The notes beneath the pieces were generated by a model. The model made no database searches. It was not told the origin of the DNA and saw only the letters and a program-made list of their open reading frames with translations. 64,000 bases of DNA from an uncultured Gammaproteobacteria bacterium (lineage in GTDB: Bacteria; Pseudomonadota; Gammaproteobacteria; JAADHQ01). The translations under genes were made by a program, and so were the position numbers. How positions within the stretch are numbered: position 1 is the stretch's first letter; every line of letters begins with the position of its first letter. The stretch covers positions 63,146-127,145 of the forward strand of contig CAWECS010000005.1 of NCBI GenBank assembly GCA_963807455.1, in the 5' to 3' direction. This document shows, piece after piece, positions 22,756-53,337 of this stretch.

Positions 22756-23400
22756 CTATATTCGGTAGGCAATCGTGGTCATGATTTTAGAAGTCAGGCC
22801 CATTATTTTCTTGATGGGTGAGGGCAACTCGGCACCACCTGCGTTGAGAGCAGTCATGCGATGTTGTTCTTCATCGGTTTTCATTTGCTTCAAAATTGCC
22901 TGACTACGTAAATCCTGTTCAGGTAATTGTTTTAAGTGTCCGTCCAGGTGGCTGACTACCTGTCTTTCGGTCTCTGCAACAAAACCCAGGCTCCATTTGT
23001 CACCAATTAACCCTGCGGTTGCACCGATTGCAAATGAGCCCGCATACCAGAGAGGGTTCAAATAACTGCTGTGACTACCCAGTTCTTGCAGTCGGGCGTC
23101 ACACCAGTTCAGGTGATCATTTTCTTCCATTGCGGCCCGCTCCATATTGTCACGTACCTTGGGTAATTTTGCCGTCAAGGCTTGCCCCTGATACAGGGCC
23201 TGCGCACAAACCTCGCCAGTATGGTTGACTCTCATCAAGCCGGCGATATGAGGTACATCACTTTCCTGAAGTGGCGATTCTTCAATGTTTTCTGCCGGAT
23301 TAGGACGATCGGTACTTTCAGGTTTGCCGAAAAGGGTGCGCACGGCCTTGTCCAGGTTGATCAATAGCTGGTCAGCAGGGCTGTAATGTCTTTGAGTCAT
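22756..23400 (-). CDS. coq7: Demethoxyubiquinone hydroxylase (Coq7 family di-iron enzyme)
   Basis: Coq7 signatures (..RVNHTGEVCAQALYQGQ.., the ExxH di-iron ligands). Start taken at MTQRHYS (ATG 23400). The ORF track extends to 23436. Confidence 0.85.
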   Translation of the reverse strand: MTQRHYSPADQLLINLDKAVRTLFGKPESTDRPNPAENIEESPLQESDVPHIAGLMRVNHTGEVCAQALYQGQALTAKLPKVRDNMERAAMEENDHLNWCDARLQELGSHSSYLNPLWYAGSFAIGATAGLIGDKWSLGFVAETERQVVSHLDGHLKQLPEQDLRSQAILKQMKTDEEQHRMTALNAGGAELPSPIKKIMGLTSKIMTTIAYRI

Positions 23401-23540
23401 GAGATCAAAGATACAAGAATAAAAAAGCAGATACAAGATAAAAAAATGACAAAGAAAATCAAGCCTCCATCACTGTAAACGACCTATTCTATTTTATCTT
23501 TAAACTTGTATCTTGTATCTTGTTTCAGTATCTTTGTTCT

Positions 23541-23849
23541 ATGTCCTATTACAAATACCATGTTTTTTTCTGTACTAATCAACGCGATGACGGCCGGGCC
23601 TGTTGTCAGGATTTTGATGCGCTTGATATGCGCCAGTATCTAAAAACAGCGGTCAAAGAATCTGGTTTGTCAGGCCCTGGCGGAGTTCGGGTTAATACTG
23701 CCGGATGCCTGGATCGATGTGAGCTGGGCCCAGTCATCGTCGTCTACCCCGATGATATCTGGTATACCTATGTGGATAAGCAGGACCTTGATGAGATTCT
23801 TTCAGAGCATCTAAAAAAGGATCATGTGGTGGAGAGGTTGTTGATTTAA
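23541..23849 (+). CDS. Thioredoxin-like [2Fe-2S] ferredoxin family protein
   Basis: ..YKYHVFFCTNQR..GRACC..TAGCLDRCELGPVIVVYPD.. is the Cys pattern of thioredoxin-like 2Fe-2S ferredoxins. ATG at 23541; the ORF track begins at a TTG at 23520. Confidence 0.75.
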   Translation: MSYYKYHVFFCTNQRDDGRACCQDFDALDMRQYLKTAVKESGLSGPGGVRVNTAGCLDRCELGPVIVVYPDDIWYTYVDKQDLDEILSEHLKKDHVVERLLI

Positions 23850-23924
23850 CTATAAGGGACGAGGTGCTAGAAAAGTCAAAAGATTCTCTTGACAAGTTAT
23901 TCAGGGTAGAGGATCATCCTGGCA

Positions 23925-24008
23925 TAGTCCCTAGTCCCTAGTCCCTAGTCCCTAGTCCCTAGTCCCTAGTCCCTAGTCCCTAGTCCCTAGTCCCTAGTCC
24001 CTAGTCCC
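23925..24008. repeat. Perfect heptanucleotide microsatellite (TAGTCCC)x12, which reads (GGGACTA)x12 on the minus strand
   Basis: Twelve uninterrupted 7-nt units lie between the ferredoxin stop (23849) and the anti-sigma stop (24008). The anti-sigma TAG stop sits inside the first unit on the minus strand. Confidence 0.95.
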
Positions 24009-24745
24009 TATATCTTAATATACGACCAACCTTCCTGTTGTTTTTTCATGACCTCGCCCAGTGCTGAGGGTACGGTGACCGTTTCAGGTAACATAATGAC
24101 CTTCTTGCCGGTTTGTCGCTGAACGCGTTTAATTGCATTTTGACAAGCCATGAACGTCAGATTTTGATAGCGTTGCTGGAGCACTTTAATTCTTTCACCA
24201 AAAGGGGTGTGTTTTGCCTGTAGTAGTTTGAGCCCTTTACCATTAGTGAGAATATCCAGTTTTACTTTCTTACCCATGTTTTCATATTGACTGAGAAAAT
24301 TTTCAGTTTCATCCAGAACAGTTTGCAGTTTGGATTGATTGTCAGTGGTGACATGCAGCATGAGTTTTATTTCATCGGCATGGCTTGTTGTTGCCGATTT
24401 TATTTGCATGGCTTCTGCAATATCAAGCAGGCTGTTTGCTTGCTGACTGTGTAAATGCAGGCTCCAGCCAAGCGCCACACCAAGAGACAAAATAATACTG
24501 GCGGCAAAGGCCATTCTGGATTTTTTTGCAAATACAGATCGGCCTAGTTGGCTTCCTTCAGGCGGGAGTTTTTCATGATAAGCATAGCGCACCATCTCAC
24601 GTATTTTTTGCAAGTCAGTTATACGACTATCCAGCTCAGGATTGTAGCGTAGTTCATCAAGCAATCGACCTGTCTCTTTCTTATCGAGTTCGCCGTCGAT
24701 GTAGGCATTCAGGTATTCATCTGAATAGTGATCATTATTGTTCAT
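24008..24745 (-). CDS. Anti-sigma factor (single-pass membrane protein, RseA/ChrR-like N-terminal anti-sigma domain)
   Basis: 245 aa. The N-terminal ..SDEYLNAYIDGELD.. motif is typical of anti-sigma N-domains. It has one TM helix (AFAASIILSLGVALGW). The start overlaps the stop of the ECF sigma gene by 4 nt. Confidence 0.75.
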   Translation of the reverse strand: MNNNDHYSDEYLNAYIDGELDKKETGRLLDELRYNPELDSRITDLQKIREMVRYAYHEKLPPEGSQLGRSVFAKKSRMAFAASIILSLGVALGWSLHLHSQQANSLLDIAEAMQIKSATTSHADEIKLMLHVTTDNQSKLQTVLDETENFLSQYENMGKKVKLDILTNGKGLKLLQAKHTPFGERIKVLQQRYQNLTFMACQNAIKRVQRQTGKKVIMLPETVTVPSALGEVMKKQQEGWSYIKI

Positions 24746-25296
24746 TTCACTCTCCTGAGAAATGGTATTTGATCATCCATGGTCTGGGTTTTCAGGTTTA
24801 AAAGTTGTTGGGTTAAAGATTTGCGGGCACGACAGAGTCGGCTCATGACAGTACCTATCGGTGTTTGTAAAATTTCTGCGACTTCAGCGTAACTGAAACC
24901 TTCCAGGTCAACCAATGTTAGCGTCTGTCGTTGTCCTATCGGCAGTCCAGCGACAGCATTCAGTATCGAGTCGGTAATATATTGACGGTGGTATTGTGAC
25001 TCTGGAGTTTCATCAACAGTAAACACACAGTCTTCAATATCTTCATGTTCGCGATTGCGACGAAAATGATCGCGCCAGCAATTGGCGAGAATGCCATACA
25101 GCCAGCAATTCAATGCTTCAGGATTTTTCAGGCTGGAATATTTTTTTAATGCCTTGGTCATGGTTTCCTGGGTTAAGTCATCACTCAGCGCTTCATCGTG
25201 GCACCAGGAGTAAGCAATACGGTATAGCCTGTTTCTCTGTGCAGCAATTCTGCCTTTCATTTCCCGGTCTTTACAAAAATGCGTTAATGGGTTCAT
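24742..25296 (-). CDS. ECF (RpoE-like) RNA polymerase sigma-70 factor
   Basis: 184 aa with sigma-70 region 2 (..LSDDLTQETMTKALKK..) and region 4 (..LTLVDLEGFSYAEVAEILQTPIGTVMSRLCRAR..). It is translationally coupled to the anti-sigma gene. Confidence 0.85.
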   Translation of the reverse strand: MNPLTHFCKDREMKGRIAAQRNRLYRIAYSWCHDEALSDDLTQETMTKALKKYSSLKNPEALNCWLYGILANCWRDHFRRNREHEDIEDCVFTVDETPESQYHRQYITDSILNAVAGLPIGQRQTLTLVDLEGFSYAEVAEILQTPIGTVMSRLCRARKSLTQQLLNLKTQTMDDQIPFLRRVK

Positions 25297-26070: not shown

Positions 26071-27445
26071 ATGAGAGCAATTTTCAAGAAAACGATGCTG
26101 GCTGCATCGTGTGCTGCTGCAATTGGCGGCATCAATACTACAGTACAGGCTGCCGACTGGTTATCAATACAGGGCACCGAGGCTCATGGTACAGCGGGTC
26201 GCGCCAAGGTATGGGGGTTTATCCAGGCGCAGTATCAGAGTGATAACAGTGCAGCCAAATGGCGCTGGCACATATGTGCCACCCAAGTTGATTGGACCTG
26301 ATCTTGACTCGCAGGATGCATTTAATGTTAACCGTGCACGTATTGGCGTGCGTGGAACTGGTATGCCAATCGATCCTAACGTGAACTATTTCTTCCTGGT
26401 TGAGTTTGGTAATAATGCCATTACCAATCCAGGTAGCGGATTTGCCAAGGTGACCGATGCCAGTATTACCTTGAACCATTTGAAAGAATATGCGCGTGTT
26501 CGTGCAGGTCAGTTCAAGATCCCGATGGCTGAAGAGGTCTATCAGGGTATTGCCTTGATTGACTATGTAAACTTTACTGCATGGTGTTAACCAGATGTTG
26601 CTGGAGCGTGTTCCTAACAGAGCATACACTGGTAACGTTGCTCCGCAGCCAATAGCATCTACAACTTCATTAAATGCCTTTAACCAGTCAATTGATGCTG
26701 CACGTGATGTCGGTGTGCAGGTGTTTAATACCTTCAAAGTAGCGCCAAGCTGGGAAGCCAGTTACTCATTTATGGTTGGTAATGGTAACGGTATCAACAG
26801 TTCGGACAATGATAACGCAAAAGATTATCATCTGTATTTTTCTACCGCCAAAGTGTTTAAAGGTACAGGTCCAAGACGCCAGGACTGGAAAACTTTTGCC
26901 TGGTATACCAAAGGTGATCGTCATCTTGATGGTAACAATGATGGTGTAACTGAAGAATATGACCGTAAACGCTATGGTGTCGGTACCCGTTACCTCAAAC
27001 TACCTTTCCGCGTAGCGGTTGAGTGGATCAAGGCCAAAGGCGTTATTTTCCAGGGTCCGGATAAACCAAGCTTTGGGTTGTTGCCGTCCTTCCATAGGTA
27101 ATCCTACAACATCCTGCTAATGGATTGAATGATAATGCGGAAGCCAGTCAGTGGTCATATTGATGTTGGATATTATATTCCCAATACAAAATGGGAGCTG
27201 GATCTGCGCTATGCTGATTACACCCGTATGGAAGACTCTAATTGGTGCGTTCGTCAATTTGCACCTGAAGAGAATTCACGGTACTTGGGTGTTCAGTATC
27301 ACTTCAACAAGAAAACACGTTTGACTGTCAACGTCACTGACCGTGAGGTCGAAGCTCACTGCATTCGCTGCAGGTGCAGGTGCCAAATGGAAATCTGGAT
27401 GGTATTGATAAGCGTTATGCAGTACAGCTGACGCATATCTTCTAA
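26071..27445 (+). pseudogene. Outer-membrane porin (phosphate-selective OprO/OprP-like) disrupted by 6 or more frameshifts and in-frame stops
   Basis: A signal peptide (MRAIFKKTMLAASCAAAIGGINTTVQA) begins at 26071 after a GAGGAG Shine-Dalgarno. Porin-like segments continue in frame 2 (26300-26590: ..NRARIGVRGTG..QFKIPMAEE..), frame 3 (26595-27101) and other frames. A C-terminal ..YAVQLTHIF* ends at 27445 with the terminal Phe typical of OMP beta-barrels. No single frame is open. Confidence 0.5.
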
Positions 27446-27548: not shown

Positions 27549-28054
27549 ATGAAAAACTGTCTAACTGCTAGCATGCTTGCTATATTGCAAGCCTGTCGGG
27601 TCTTCCAATGTTAAGGATAGCAAGCCGCAAATGTAACATCTGATCCAGCTGGCGCAAGCGTTTATGCGAATGGGGCCAAGTTGGGAGTGACGCCATTACG
27701 GGCATAATTTGTTCAAGGCATTTCCTGCGGGATGGAATAACTGGGTGCTGAGTGCGCAAGGAGTACTGATGGTCAAGAAATCAGGCTGCGAGGATTTCAT
27801 GCTCAAAGTCAATGACGCCATTATTAGCCAGCCAATTCATGCGAAGTTGAATTGTGACAAAGCAGCCGCCACTGCCAAGCAAGAAGCGGATACCCAGGTT
27901 ACAGCCAGCTGCCAGCACGGCAGTCAGCCCTGCATCGCCCAAAGCCAGCCAGACTGAGGAACGTTTGAGTGAATTAAAGGAGCTGTATGAAAAAGGCGTG
28001 ATCACAAAGCAGGAATATGCCGCCACCCGGAAAAGGATACTGAATGAGCTGTAA
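27549..28054 (+). pseudogene. Lipoprotein with PEGA-like and C-terminal SHOCT domains, disrupted by several frameshifts
   Basis: A lipoprotein signal with lipobox (MKNCLTASMLAILQAC) runs into a stop after 21 codons. A PEGA-like segment (SDPAGASVYANGAKLGVTPL) and ..KKSGCEDFMLKVND.. lie in other frames. The last 66 codons (27854-28054) are an intact SHOCT motif (LSELKELYEKGVITKQEYAATRKRIL). Confidence 0.4.
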
Positions 28055-29424: not shown

Positions 29425-29489
29425 AAGTATTTCGAGTAGTAGCTGGTAGCGAGGGGCTAGTGGCTAGGTTAAATTAAGGAGGAAAGCGC

Positions 29490-29872
29490 ATGGATGCATT
29501 AGAGAATCTGGAAGTTTGGAAAAGAGCATGTAGACTTTCGGTGAGCATTTATCAAGTTTTTGCAGATAGTAAACAGTATGCTTTTAAGGATCAGATTACA
29601 CGTTCTGCTTTTTCAATTCCGTCGAATATCGCTGAAGGGTATGAAAGGGGTAGGTCATTACAGAATCCAGTTTTTAAATAATTGCTAAAGGTTCCTGCGG
29701 CGAACTTTGGACTCAATTAATGATCGGTAGAGCAGCAGGCTTGATTGATGCTGAAACGAGTAAAGAGCTGGAAAATGAAGCCAGGGAAATTTCAAAAATG
29801 CTTTATGGCTTAATGAAGTATTATAATGAAATTCAAGAAAAACTGGTTCCTAGCAAAAACCTAGTCTACTAG
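29490..29872 (+). pseudogene. Four-helix-bundle protein (23S rRNA intervening-sequence protein family, TIGR02436-like) with two +1 frameshifts
   Basis: Frame A reads [43 protein letters not shown], then stops. The family consensus continues as ..QFL.. in the +1 frame and as IIAKGSCGELWTQLMIGRAAGLIDAETSKELENEAREISKMLYGLMKY.. in the +2 frame, ending at 29872. AAGGAGG Shine-Dalgarno upstream. Confidence 0.6.
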
Positions 29873-29902
29873 TCCCTCGGTCACCTCGCTACTGTTATTT
29901 AT

Positions 29903-33113: not shown

Positions 33114-33533
33114 ATGGATGATTACTCTTTACCCGGTCTGTTTATCAGTGCTTTTATTTCTTCTACCCTGTTTCCAGGTGGTTCTGAAGCGATATTTATT
33201 TACATGGTGACTCAGGGTGATGAGTCCTTGATGCAGCTCTGGTGGGTGGCCAGTTTAGGTAACACCCTGGGTGGAATGACTTCCTGGTTAATTGGGTATT
33301 ACCTGAGTAGACGTTATCCGGCGCAGGCGCTGGTCAAGCCTGAGCATAAGCGAGCATTGGATTGGGTGCAACGCTGGGGTAGTCCCGTGTTATTGATGTC
33401 ATGGTTGCCTGTAGTGGGTGATCCTCTCTGCGTTGTAGCGGGCTGGTTGCGAATGCACTGGTTCATCTGCTTATTAATGATTCTGATGGGTAAGGCTGTG
33501 CGCTATGCGGTTTTGTTGTCACTATTTGCATAG
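33114..33533 (+). CDS. yqaA: YqaA family inner-membrane protein (DedA-related)
   Basis: 139 aa. Aligns with E. coli YqaA (..SAFISSTLFPGGSEA..GNTLGGMTSWLIGYY..SWLPVVGDPLCVVAGWLRMHW..). Confidence 0.85.
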   Translation: MDDYSLPGLFISAFISSTLFPGGSEAIFIYMVTQGDESLMQLWWVASLGNTLGGMTSWLIGYYLSRRYPAQALVKPEHKRALDWVQRWGSPVLLMSWLPVVGDPLCVVAGWLRMHWFICLLMILMGKAVRYAVLLSLFA

Positions 33534-43093: not shown

Positions 43094-43486
43094 CTAGCGT
43101 CTTCTCTTCTTGGCAGCAGCTCTTTTCTTCTTAGCTGGAGCCTTTTTCTTCTTCTTGGCAGCAGCTTTTTTCTTTTTAGCTGGAGCCCTTTTCTTCTTCT
43201 TGGCAGCAGCTTTTTTCTTTTTAGCTGGAGCCCTTTTCTTCTTCTTGGCAGCAGCTTTTTTCTTTTTCTTAGCTGGAGCCTTTTTCTTCTTCTTGGCAGC
43301 AGCTTTTTTCTTCTTAGCTGGAGCCTTTTTCTTCTTCTTAGCTGCAGCTTTTTTCTTTTTAGCTGGAGCTTTTTTCTTCTTAGCTGTTGCCTTCTTCTTC
43401 TTGGCTACAGACTTTTTCTTTTTAGCCACTGCCTTTTTCTTCTTGGCAGGAGCCCTCTTTTTTACTGCTTTCTTTTTAGTTGCCAT
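43094..43486 (-). CDS. Lys/Ala-rich histone H1-like nucleoid protein (AlgP/Hc-like), composed of KKKK-A-P/A-AKKKK repeats
   Basis: 130 aa from the ATG at 43486, which has GGAGG 7 nt upstream: MATKKKAVKKRAPAKKKKAVAKKKK.. followed by about 16 repeats of A(A/P)AKKKK(K). The DNA is a perfect 42-48-nt tandem repeat. The ORF track lists a TTG at 43501. Confidence 0.75.
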   Translation of the reverse strand: MATKKKAVKKRAPAKKKKAVAKKKKSVAKKKKATAKKKKAPAKKKKAAAKKKKKAPAKKKKAAAKKKKKAPAKKKKKAAAKKKKRAPAKKKKAAAKKKKRAPAKKKKAAAKKKKKAPAKKKRAAAKKRRR

Positions 43487-45429: not shown

Positions 45430-45613
45430 AAGGGTCCCGCGTGTGCCGTCGCAGCTTTCGCCCTTGAACCTGAGGTTCAGGTGGGAATAGCGTGGATTCA
45501 TCAGGCTTTCCGCTTCAAGGCGGACTTGCACAACAGTATCTGAACACTAAACCCGGGTATAATAACATGGCTCAAGAATTTACCCGGCTGCTAACGAACA
45601 CCGCAGGAGATCA
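45430..45613 (-). ncRNA. ssrS: 6S RNA (SsrS); end coordinates approximate
   Basis: The minus-strand sequence AUGAUCUCCUGCGGUGUUCGUUAGCAGCCGGG..CUUGAGCC..UAUACC ... CACCUGAACCUCAGGUUCAAGGGCGAAAGCUGCGACGGCACACGCGGGACCC aligns segment by segment with E. coli 6S RNA (..UGUUCGCAAGCGGGCC..CUGAGCC..CAUACC ... CACCUUGAACCAAGGGUUCAAGGG..CUGCGGCGGCAU..). It has the conserved zapA-ssrS-fau synteny. Confidence 0.65.
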
Positions 45614-53093: not shown

Positions 53094-53106
53094 TGCACTT
53101 CAATTA

Positions 53107-53337
53107 CAGACCCGATGGGAGATACCCGAACACTTGTTCGGGAGCCGAAGGCGCAACACATCGCTCGGAAACGCTCAGGCAAACGGACTATCGGGTTATA
53201 TTGACTCTGGAGAGTGATTACATAGGGTGATCCACCGACGGGGCAGAGAATAGGCCATTATGCTGTCATTCTCAATCTCTCAGGTTAAGGGACAGAGGGG
53301 CGGTAACAGGTCTTGGCCTGTTGCCGTCTTTTTTTTG
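53107..53337 (+). promoter_or_regulatory. Glycine riboswitch (tandem aptamers) with terminator expression platform, leader of the gcvT operon
   Basis: Aptamer 1 has P1 CCCGAT..ATCGGG (53111-53195) with GGGAGA, GCCGAAGGCGCAA and CUCAGGCAAACGGAC. Aptamer 2 has P1 CTCTG..CAGAG (53206-53297) with GGAGAG, CACCGACGGGGCA and CUCUCAGGUUAAGGGACAGAG. Then an intrinsic terminator: a 10-bp stem CGGTAACAGG/CCTGTTGCCG plus T8 (53301-53336). This is a classic ON-switch arrangement. Confidence 0.85.

Follow-up and report, generated by a model that had tools for sequence, protein, structure and literature searches.

A perfect run of heptamers lies between two convergent genes in a 64,000-nucleotide stretch of DNA from an uncultured Gammaproteobacteria bacterium (hereafter, the window; positions are counted from its first letter). 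Is this tract real, what generates it, and does it serve the genes that end against it? By direct reading, twelve perfect TAGTCCC units occupy positions 23925-24008 and are followed by "TA", a partial 13th unit. TRF called the same array through to 24010 (period 7, 12.3 copies, 100% matches, score 172). A preliminary description of this DNA had reported twelve uninterrupted, non-random heptamers at 23925-24008; the units and their non-randomness hold on direct reading, in TRF and against shuffles, and only the end of the array moves, to 24010. Across the window, TAGTCCC occurs 14 times against ~3.6 copies expected by chance, a count reached in 0 of 100 shuffles of the 64-kb sequence. Twelve of these copies form the array, which is the sole perfect tandem of at least three copies with a unit of 4-12 nt in the window, and two are isolated: one at 29870, previously taken for the only further occurrence, and another at 33380. 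Read from the minus strand, the tract is (GGGACTA)12, as described earlier, with a tract of at least three G in each 7-nt unit over at least four consecutive units, which fits the G3-N4 pattern. The features of the locus are collected in Table 1.

Table 1. The heptamer array, its palindromic element, the flanking genes and a second, degenerate palindrome in the window
Feature	Position	Strand	Basis or remark
Thioredoxin-like [2Fe-2S] ferredoxin gene, convergent with the operon	23541-23849	plus	Pfam; ortholog in L121
Short degenerate G-rich arm, AGGGACGAGGTGCTAG	23855-23870	plus	13/16 (81%) complementary to array units
Conserved core, AAGTCAAAAGATTCTCTTGAC	23873-23893	minus	hairpin GTCAAGAGAATCTTTTGAC, then TTTT (terminator-like pattern)
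Spacer ending in conserved (G/C)ATCATCCTG (23913-23921), directly before the array	23894-23924		comparison of element copies
Heptamer array, (TAGTCCC)12.3	23925-24010	plus-strand reading; (GGGACTA)n on minus, the coding strand of the anti-sigma-like gene	direct reading, TRF
TAG stop of the 245-aa gene	24008-24010	minus	made up of the final C of unit 12 and the partial 13th unit; on the coding strand, the array's first TAG
245-aa putative anti-sigma factor, DsrE-like C-terminal domain	24008-24745	minus	sub-threshold Pfam
ECF-type sigma-70 family gene, first of a two-gene operon	24742-25296	minus	Pfam Sigma70_r2, Sigma70_r4_2
Second, degenerate palindrome	29437-29892		G-like arm 29437-29470, C-like arm 29857-29892

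The position of the array relative to its neighbours was correctly recognised from the start: it sits between convergent genes, and the TAG stop of the 245-aa gene is common to that gene and to the first unit of the array. The ECF sigma assignment of the gene upstream, which overlaps the 245-aa gene by 4 nt, is solid by sequence. The anti-sigma label of the 245-aa product is putative and rests on operon position and on Pfam matches that are all sub-threshold (RseA_N, E = 0.008; zf-HC2, E = 0.054; DsrE, E = 0.0011). Homologs of this protein are almost all 241-247 aa long, and its close orthologs, of 245-246 aa, share a C-terminus that ends in ...GWSYIKI at the stop. The ferredoxin ORF on the far side of the array ends in a TAA (23847-23849), and its true start is likely the ATG at 23541, which gives a protein of 102 aa, equal to the ortholog in L121. 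Because every unit contains CTAG, each of the three frames of either strand has a TAG. As the array also lies past both stops, neither protein could be changed by a change in copy number. RpoA is at most 75-78% identical to that of named organisms (Thiohalobacter, Endothiovibrio and "Chromatiales") and 95-98% identical to metagenomic proteins, which points to an uncultured gammaproteobacterium as the host.

At the sequence level, the array is the expanded long arm of an imperfect palindrome of ~155 bp that fills the convergent gap between the ferredoxin and anti-sigma genes. Read on the plus strand, the order is the ferredoxin stop, a short degenerate G-arm, an AT-rich core hairpin, a spacer of ~30 nt ending in ATCATCCTG, (TAGTCCC)n and the anti-sigma stop on the opposite strand. 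The G-arm begins 6 nt past the ferredoxin stop and is better kept in related loci (L121, L124, L142 and L146) than in the window. The core hairpin, GTCAAGAGAATCTTTTGAC followed by TTTT, was found by a pattern scan of the minus strand; its AU-rich stem is weak, with a predicted energy of -7.4 kcal/mol in the window and -3.6 to -5.3 kcal/mol in other element copies, and in one element copy the fold was no better than that of shuffles. The conserved core between the arms, AAGTCAAAAGATTNNCTTGAC, has a single occurrence in the window, and TCTTGTATC is no dispersed motif here, its exact copies within the 64 kb being confined to 23410-23519. A promoter-like match, TTGACA-17-GATCAT (score 10/12), lies on the plus strand at 23889-23917, with TTGACA at 23889-23894. 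An Rfam search of 23300-24150 returned nothing meaningful, and the fold of the whole intergenic region was not significantly better than that of shuffles (z = -1.8 and -1.5). The preliminary description had left out that the array is an arm of a dispersed palindromic element and a member of a described repeat class.

We compared five orthologous loci (L121-L125) from the two closest related uncultured gammaproteobacterial lineages. Both lineages carry the array at the matching stop codon (...AAG ATC TAG GGACTAG...). Their copies of the 245-aa gene are 87% and 79% identical to that of the window in protein and 83% and 75% in DNA, and the gene order is kept (porin, 147-aa gene, sigma, anti-sigma, convergent ferredoxin, COQ7, speD, glyoxalase and OsmC). 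L121 and L122 are identical in 3734 of 3734 upstream bases, yet they hold 12 units (three of them GGGACTT) and 19 units, respectively. The gene-proximal unit pattern, AAAAtAtt, is common to both, so that the order of the variant GGGACTT units is kept at this end, and the pure distal run has 4 versus 11 units. Similarly, L124 and L125 are identical in 2366 of 2371 bases (5 differences) and hold 14 versus at least 18 units; the L125 contig ends inside the array, as does that of L123, whose locus is incomplete. Length change on identical flanks indicates that array length evolves much faster than base substitution, as slippage predicts, and from this polymorphism we infer that slippage generates the array. 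These differences in unit number bear out the slipped-strand hypermutability proposed in the preliminary description, and the comparison of related genomes that it had suggested as a check yields length polymorphism at the orthologous site. The tract is an example, from natural populations, of a change in length against a background of otherwise identical DNA.

Orthologs at ≤72% identity lack the array and have GC-rich palindromes or arrays of other heptamers in this spacer instead. In L133, for instance, (AGATGAA)5 comes right after the stop in the orthologous spacer, and (AGATGAA)5, (AGATACA)22 and (CCTAGTT)14 are found in the same or neighbouring spacers of other lineages. The array is dispensable, since distant orthologs manage with ordinary GC-rich hairpins at this site.

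These comparisons also bear on whether the array could have been produced by assembly or sequencing error. The porin, SHOCT and four-helix-bundle genes of the window are frameshifted relative to intact orthologs, so small indel errors are possible in the source assembly, and two short-read contigs (L123 and L125) break within the array. Against an artefact, a matching array at a matching stop codon is present in five independently assembled contigs (JGI, ENA and Logan); these assemblies cover two related lineages, and several of the arrays are bounded on both sides by unique sequence. Corroborated in this way by independent assemblies, the array is genuine, and we give the artefact reading virtually no credence.

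Both relatives contain a second copy of the whole arrangement (locus B, as distinct from locus A at the anti-sigma stop), after a SHOCT-domain gene and before the rplM promoter, with 9 units in L146 and 16 in L142. The heads of loci A and B can be aligned in the relatives over the G-arm, AAAGTCAAAAGATTNNCTTGAC and ATCATCCTG, which gives a conserved head of ~75 nt. Across the two loci, the array has been retained through about 20% protein divergence. The relatives have two array loci within contig stretches of 4.6 kb and 6.6 kb; the window has one array in 64 kb and, at locus B, an ordinary hairpin with a T-run terminator and no array. The comparison of filled (L146) and empty (window) locus B gave no clear element boundaries or target duplications, the spacers being otherwise unalignable. 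With the conserved head (core hairpin plus ATCATCCTG) attached to it, the array behaves as part of a dispersed element, and a ~75-nt head that travels with the repeat offers a handle for testing mobility and function. Besides its single full element copy, the window holds a degenerate relative (29437-29892), with an alignment score of 38 against a shuffle maximum of 29. This second palindrome brackets a four-helix-bundle ORF, and the lone TAGTCCC at 29870-29876 lies inside its C-like arm; as a bare heptamer count, this copy is not significant. At the matching spot, L146 has CTAGGGACGAGGAACTAGGGACTAG.

To place the heptamer in a wider context, we scanned one genome per species for TAGTCCC arrays of at least three copies and obtained at least 120 loci (887 kb). 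The source genome of the window is not among the matches listed, and none of those listed has flanks in common with the window. They include many Acidobacteriaceae, heterocystous cyanobacteria (Nostoc, Scytonema and Calothrix), several Gammaproteobacteria and Geomonas. Perfect arrays of at least three copies in the listed loci have period 7 in 207 cases, versus 3-14 for each of the other periods (4-9). With the array oriented by its C-rich strand, 33 of 109 cases among the matches listed have an inverted G-rich partner no more than 200 nt away on the 5' side, and 2 of 109 have one on the 3' side, with ~3% in control windows; for other heptamers within the listed loci, the inverted arm is 5' in 21 cases and 3' in 1. 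Polarities of 33:2 and 21:1 imply that the palindromes read G-arm first on either strand.

Position relative to genes follows a rule as well. Where the 3' end of a gene faces the G-sense side, no more than 25 nt separate its stop from the array in 46 of 59 matches listed, versus 8 of 48 on the other side; these counts rest on simple ORF calls rather than a gene finder, with ten cases checked against Pfam. Many of the stop-adjacent ORFs among the matches listed end in array-encoded ...GTRD or ...GLGTRD. The ten such ORFs that were checked were all real genes (T2SS ATPase, MreB, an amino-acid-kinase-family protein, an enoyl-ACP-reductase-type SDR, Rpe, FabH, a 5'-3' exonuclease, an ABC ATPase, a glycosyltransferase and a DAO-type oxidoreductase), and in 8 of the 10 the Pfam match reaches to within three positions of the profile end. 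In other phyla, the GGGACTA repeat adjoins the housekeeping genes fabH, fabI, pyrH, mreB and rpe. For this heptamer, both rules (G-arm first, array beginning at the stop codon) apply across Acidobacteriota, Cyanobacteria, Proteobacteria, Planctomycetota and other groups, which suggests a common cause worth an experiment. In a baseline of viral contigs, the target heptamer gave 5 loci, composition-matched scrambles 3 and 35, GGGAATC 3 and the cyanobacterial STRR1 unit 4, counts that are too small and uneven to tell whether the heptamer is special.

We then modelled the structure of the G-rich strand. With the gquad model of ViennaRNA, four units are predicted to fold at -8.4 kcal/mol with a G-quadruplex versus -4.4 kcal/mol without (a gain of 4.0), and the array alone at -28.2 versus -25.6 kcal/mol (a gain of 2.6), so that the gain in the energy model is small. 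Without a G-quadruplex, the array shows weak self-pairing via CUAG palindromes and no other. Support for the predicted G-quadruplex potential of the GGGACTA array is of two kinds, in silico and by analogy.

The analogy is with a class of repeats whose G-rich heptamer units begin at the stop codon of a gene (Rehm et al. 2015, PMC4692102), and the window tract fits into this class. This class comprises Xanthomonas repeats of the unit GGGAATC and Nostoc repeats of GGGGA(C/T)T, non-coding and of 2-26 units, with four units, the G-quadruplex minimum, preferred. Each Xanthomonas genome has 70-75 "convergent" inverted pairs; most of the repeats are transcribed, and 83% occupy conserved positions in two Xanthomonas species, where they differ in length (PMC4692102). 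K+-dependent G-quadruplexes were measured for (GGGAATC)3GGG (T1/2 of 50.4 °C in 100 mM KCl) and (GGGACTG)3GGG (T1/2 above 74 °C); phase variation was judged unlikely, no regulatory effect was found and function was left open (PMC4692102). The window tract shares the 7-nt unit with one run of three or four G, the non-coding location, the intergenic position kept in related genomes with differing lengths, and the lack of a tie to surface genes. It also shares the start at the stop codon (24008-24010 belongs to the first unit) and the convergent, G-first inverted partner, here the degenerate G-arm at 23855-23870. GGGACTA is one base per unit away from the G-quadruplex-tested GGGACTG, the rotated Nostoc unit, its own G-quadruplex being a prediction. 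The published consensus is GGGNATC or GGGGA(C/T)T, whereas the unit here is GGGACTA, so we treat it as a sequence variant within the class rather than as the same repeat. Unlike the Rehm class, the repeat itself supplies TAG stops, owing to the CTAG inside its unit. The Xanthomonas and Nostoc genomes carry ~180 to hundreds of arrays each, compared with one in the 64 kb here and two loci in the relatives, and the attachment to a conserved head seen here was not reported by Rehm et al. (PMC4692102). The GGGACTA unit, the host lineage and the conserved-head attachment are new details of a described class, which gains a unit sequence and a host lineage with this tract.

Other classes of bacterial repeats resemble the array in part. 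Heptamers dominate bacterial long simple sequence repeats (LSSRs), according to the summary in PMC4679880 of Mrazek, Guo & Shah (2007), and the window tract resembles these in being a perfect tandem beyond chance with a heptamer unit, in its sporadic phylogeny and in the slippage proposed to produce it. Both LSSR properties, a chance-exceeding perfect repeat of 5-11 nt and length variation between relatives, are found here. LSSR is a descriptive class without a positional or strand rule, and the stop-codon adjacency and palindromic partner of the window array are additional to it. TAACTGA direct repeats of 2-43 units, described in marine Beggiatoaceae, cyanobacteria and Bacteroidetes (MacGregor 2015, PMC4679880), are likewise intergenic, stop-codon-containing heptamers that are patchy across phyla; they have no G-run and lie mostly a few nt upstream of start codons, whereas the window array lies at a 3' end. 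A closer analogue of the TAACTGA system in the window is a (CTTGTAT)4 tract, ending 7 nt before the ferredoxin ATG. STRR heptamers of cyanobacteria, reportedly described by Mazel and colleagues in 1990, include STRR1 (CCCCAGT), the same unit as Rehm's GGGGACT. They too form tandem heptamer arrays between genes, and STRR1 and the window's unit differ by a single substitution; STRR1 is cyanobacterial, and the window comes from an uncultured gammaproteobacterium. REP/BIME, BOX and MITE-like elements share with the window element an imperfect palindrome at gene ends, more than one copy per genome and a common core. Inside pneumococcal BOX elements, boxB units vary in number, so that a variable number of internal repeat units is a further likeness; the element here differs in having been seen at two loci and in having arms of tandem heptamers rather than a single stem.

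Taking the whole as one explanation, we lean, at slightly better than even confidence, toward a G-run heptamer repeat that forms the expanded arm of a palindrome, is driven by slippage and acts as a structural module at gene 3' ends. Replication slippage would add and remove units, mostly in the pure gene-distal run and far faster than point substitution. Going by the anatomy, the sigma/anti-sigma mRNA would carry the array as (GGGACUA)12 in its 3'UTR, ahead of the hairpin and U-run. The G-rich RNA or the non-template DNA could then fold into G-quadruplexes or pair with the opposite arm, and the element might help to stop both convergent transcripts, or to insulate them, and protect the 3' end of the mRNA. 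This arrangement makes an effect on termination or 3'-end stability plausible; that the element in fact acts as a structural 3'-end module we consider quite possible, though somewhat short of an even chance. If about four or more units suffice, the unit number beyond that would be free to drift.

Ranking nearly as likely as a 3'-end module is a functionless by-product, which we hold to be a serious but lesser possibility: a REP- or MITE-like palindrome with heptamer arms, one of which was inflated by polymerase slippage, may simply be tolerated. Lying between two gene ends, the array would do no harm and would persist for that reason alone, and its stop-codon position would arise because selection on the ORF halts its spread there. 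Such an origin fits the finding that slippage favours heptamers in a wide range of bacteria (Mrazek 2007, summarised in PMC4679880) and the failure to find a regulatory role for the sister repeats (PMC4692102). The wide drift in copy number (9 to at least 19), the other heptamers in the same or neighbouring spacers, the distant orthologs without the array and the plain terminator that the window holds at locus B instead all point the same way. It fits less well with the preference for four units, the G-quadruplex minimum (Rehm et al., PMC4692102), or with the persistence of the array at two loci while the proteins diverged. Pure slippage is also strand-symmetric and does not easily explain the G-first polarity, which recurs, together with stop adjacency, across phyla and heptamer classes in the matches listed.

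Slippage-driven length polymorphism is shared with phase-variable contingency loci, such as the tetramers of Haemophilus and Neisseria and the AGAT repeat in the 5'UTR of Moraxella uspA2. The preliminary description had read the tract as a locus of this kind. Gain and loss of units would then switch or tune the sigma/anti-sigma operon or the ferredoxin gene; a unit length that is no multiple of 3, high purity and length polymorphism on identical flanks agree with that reading. It was not borne out, however, as the array lies in no ORF, promoter spacer or 5'UTR and can shift no frame. Both flanking genes end at it, TAG in all frames of both strands leaves the C-terminus invariant, and both promoter-like hexamers lie upstream of the array, so their spacing is independent of copy number. 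Furthermore, phase variation was judged unlikely for the class (Rehm 2015, PMC4692102), the same repeat adjoins housekeeping genes in other phyla, and the neighbours here are an ECF sigma factor, an anti-sigma-like protein and a ferredoxin rather than surface or host-interaction genes. Largely refuted by the anatomy, a contingency locus is in our view very improbable. A signal on the C-rich strand, either a Rho-utilisation (rut) site or an antisense promoter, is also quite unlikely. C-rich, G-poor and weakly paired RNA is a general feature of rut sites, and the (UAGUCCC)12 RNA of the plus strand has these properties (84 nt, 43% C, 14% G and weak CUAG self-pairing); a Rho site here would keep ferredoxin transcripts from continuing, in antisense, into the operon. 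At locus B, however, no gene requires protection from that side. TTGACA-17-GATCAT, as a promoter, would launch a C-rich repeat RNA antisense to the anti-sigma gene, but we do not take it for a real one. It matches at 10 of 12 positions and its TTGAC is conserved in all element copies, but this conservation is explained by TTGAC also being half of the core hairpin, the -10-like hexamer and its distance vary from one element copy to another, and this one promoter-like match compares with 1.6 expected from shuffles.

The structural 3'-end module can also be read more broadly, in that G-first, heptamer-armed palindromes flush with stop codons would form a functional cross-phylum class of gene 3' ends, with a mobile cassette in this lineage; we regard this as speculative and rather unlikely. 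If true, both convergent polymerases would first meet a G-quadruplex or R-loop roadblock, or the element would be a stop for 3' exonucleases, and the lineage would possess a cassette (core hairpin, ATCATCCTG and expandable array) able to replace ordinary terminators. Annotators should be aware that short-read contigs break at arrays of this kind and that predicted proteins can acquire GTRD-type tails from them.

Related lineages carry further heptamer arrays. On the related-lineage contig L133, the anti-sigma ortholog ends in TAA and is followed, a few nucleotides on, by five AGATGAA units, and a 61%-identity contig (L139) carries, elsewhere on the contig, (CCTAGTT)14, whose unit differs from that of the window by one base. 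The codons G-W-S-Y-I-K-I* also terminate many other ORFs of ~235-245 aa on contigs of the same metagenome set; these are followed by a canonical hairpin and T-run terminator or directly by a convergent gene, and no heptamer arrays were found after them.

In many genomes, ORFs extend a few codons into a TAGTCCC array, so that the predicted protein C-terminus is the array-encoded GTRD* or GLGTRD*. For example, a 5'-3' exonuclease-family gene on chromosome I of Aliivibrio fischeri ES114 ends in ...IRYEKGTRD*. Pseudomaricurvus sp. HS19, a cultured gammaproteobacterium, has a very long TAGTCCC array of about 670 bp, in which 83 units and 12 units are separated by 2 nt, and this array could serve as an experimental model. 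Among viral contigs, the composition-matched control heptamer was found as (CTGACTC)3 in 35 (L190-L224), several of them with multiple sites; 3-5 were obtained for each of four other heptamers, namely the target, a further control and the two published ones.

The divergent COQ7-ferredoxin spacer of the window holds a second heptamer system, an inverted repeat that includes (CTTGTAT)4.4. Start codons lie 1-7 nt beyond the end of each pyrimidine-rich arm, and no Shine-Dalgarno sequence was seen at these start codons. The arrangement is reminiscent of the TAACTGA repeats of marine Beggiatoaceae (MacGregor 2015, PMC4679880). The equivalent spacer of a 69%-identity lineage (L131) contains (AGATACA)22, and that of another sample (L132) contains an AGATACA array of at least 10 units.

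The four-helix-bundle ORF, located between rpsI and tRNA-Gln, is flanked on both sides by a degenerate heptamer inverted repeat, and the isolated TAGTCCC pointed out in the preliminary description falls inside this repeat. The small gene thus seems to form the loop region of a palindrome with heptamer arms. This ORF, a porin gene and a SHOCT-domain gene are disrupted in the window. The close relative L146 has intact porin and SHOCT-domain orthologs, and its four-helix-bundle ortholog keeps the reading frame up to where L146 ends. The three disrupted genes are either real pseudogenes or the product of indel errors in the source assembly.

Apart from the heptamers, the window contains two structured RNAs and an imperfect tandem repeat that is probably a repetitive coding region, because every one of its periods is a multiple of 3.

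Locations of the features described in the window and in other contigs and genomes
Feature	Location	Strand	Details
Inverted repeat, COQ7-ferredoxin spacer	window 23402-23443 and 23499-23540		42 nt; units AAGATACAAG / CTTGTATCTT
(CTTGTAT)4.4	window 23505-23534
Porin gene	window 26111-27431		broken into three ORFs
SHOCT-domain gene	window 27709-28053		truncated
Inverted repeat, four-helix-bundle ORF	window 29437-29470 and 29857-29892; L146 6255-6281		~36 nt; degenerate GGGCTAG- and CTAGTCC-like units
Four-helix-bundle ORF	window 29491-29850		frameshifted
Imperfect tandem repeat	window 43105-43456		TTCTTCTTAGCTGCAGC-like units; periods 21, 24, 45, 93 and 138
6S RNA	window 45430-45612	-	91.8 bits
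Tandem glycine riboswitch	window 53106-53305	+	upstream of ORF at 53313
AGATACA arrays	L131 4137-4290; L132 4137-4206
(AGATGAA)5	L133 1953-1987
(CCTAGTT)14	L139 5361-5458
TAGTCCC array, Pseudomaricurvus sp. HS19	NZ_WVVW01000018.1; L082 4409-5076
TAGTCCC array, A. fischeri ES114	L084 3911-3939
ORFs ending G-W-S-Y-I-K-I*	L135, L141, L156, L163-L166, L169-L171, L175, L180 and others
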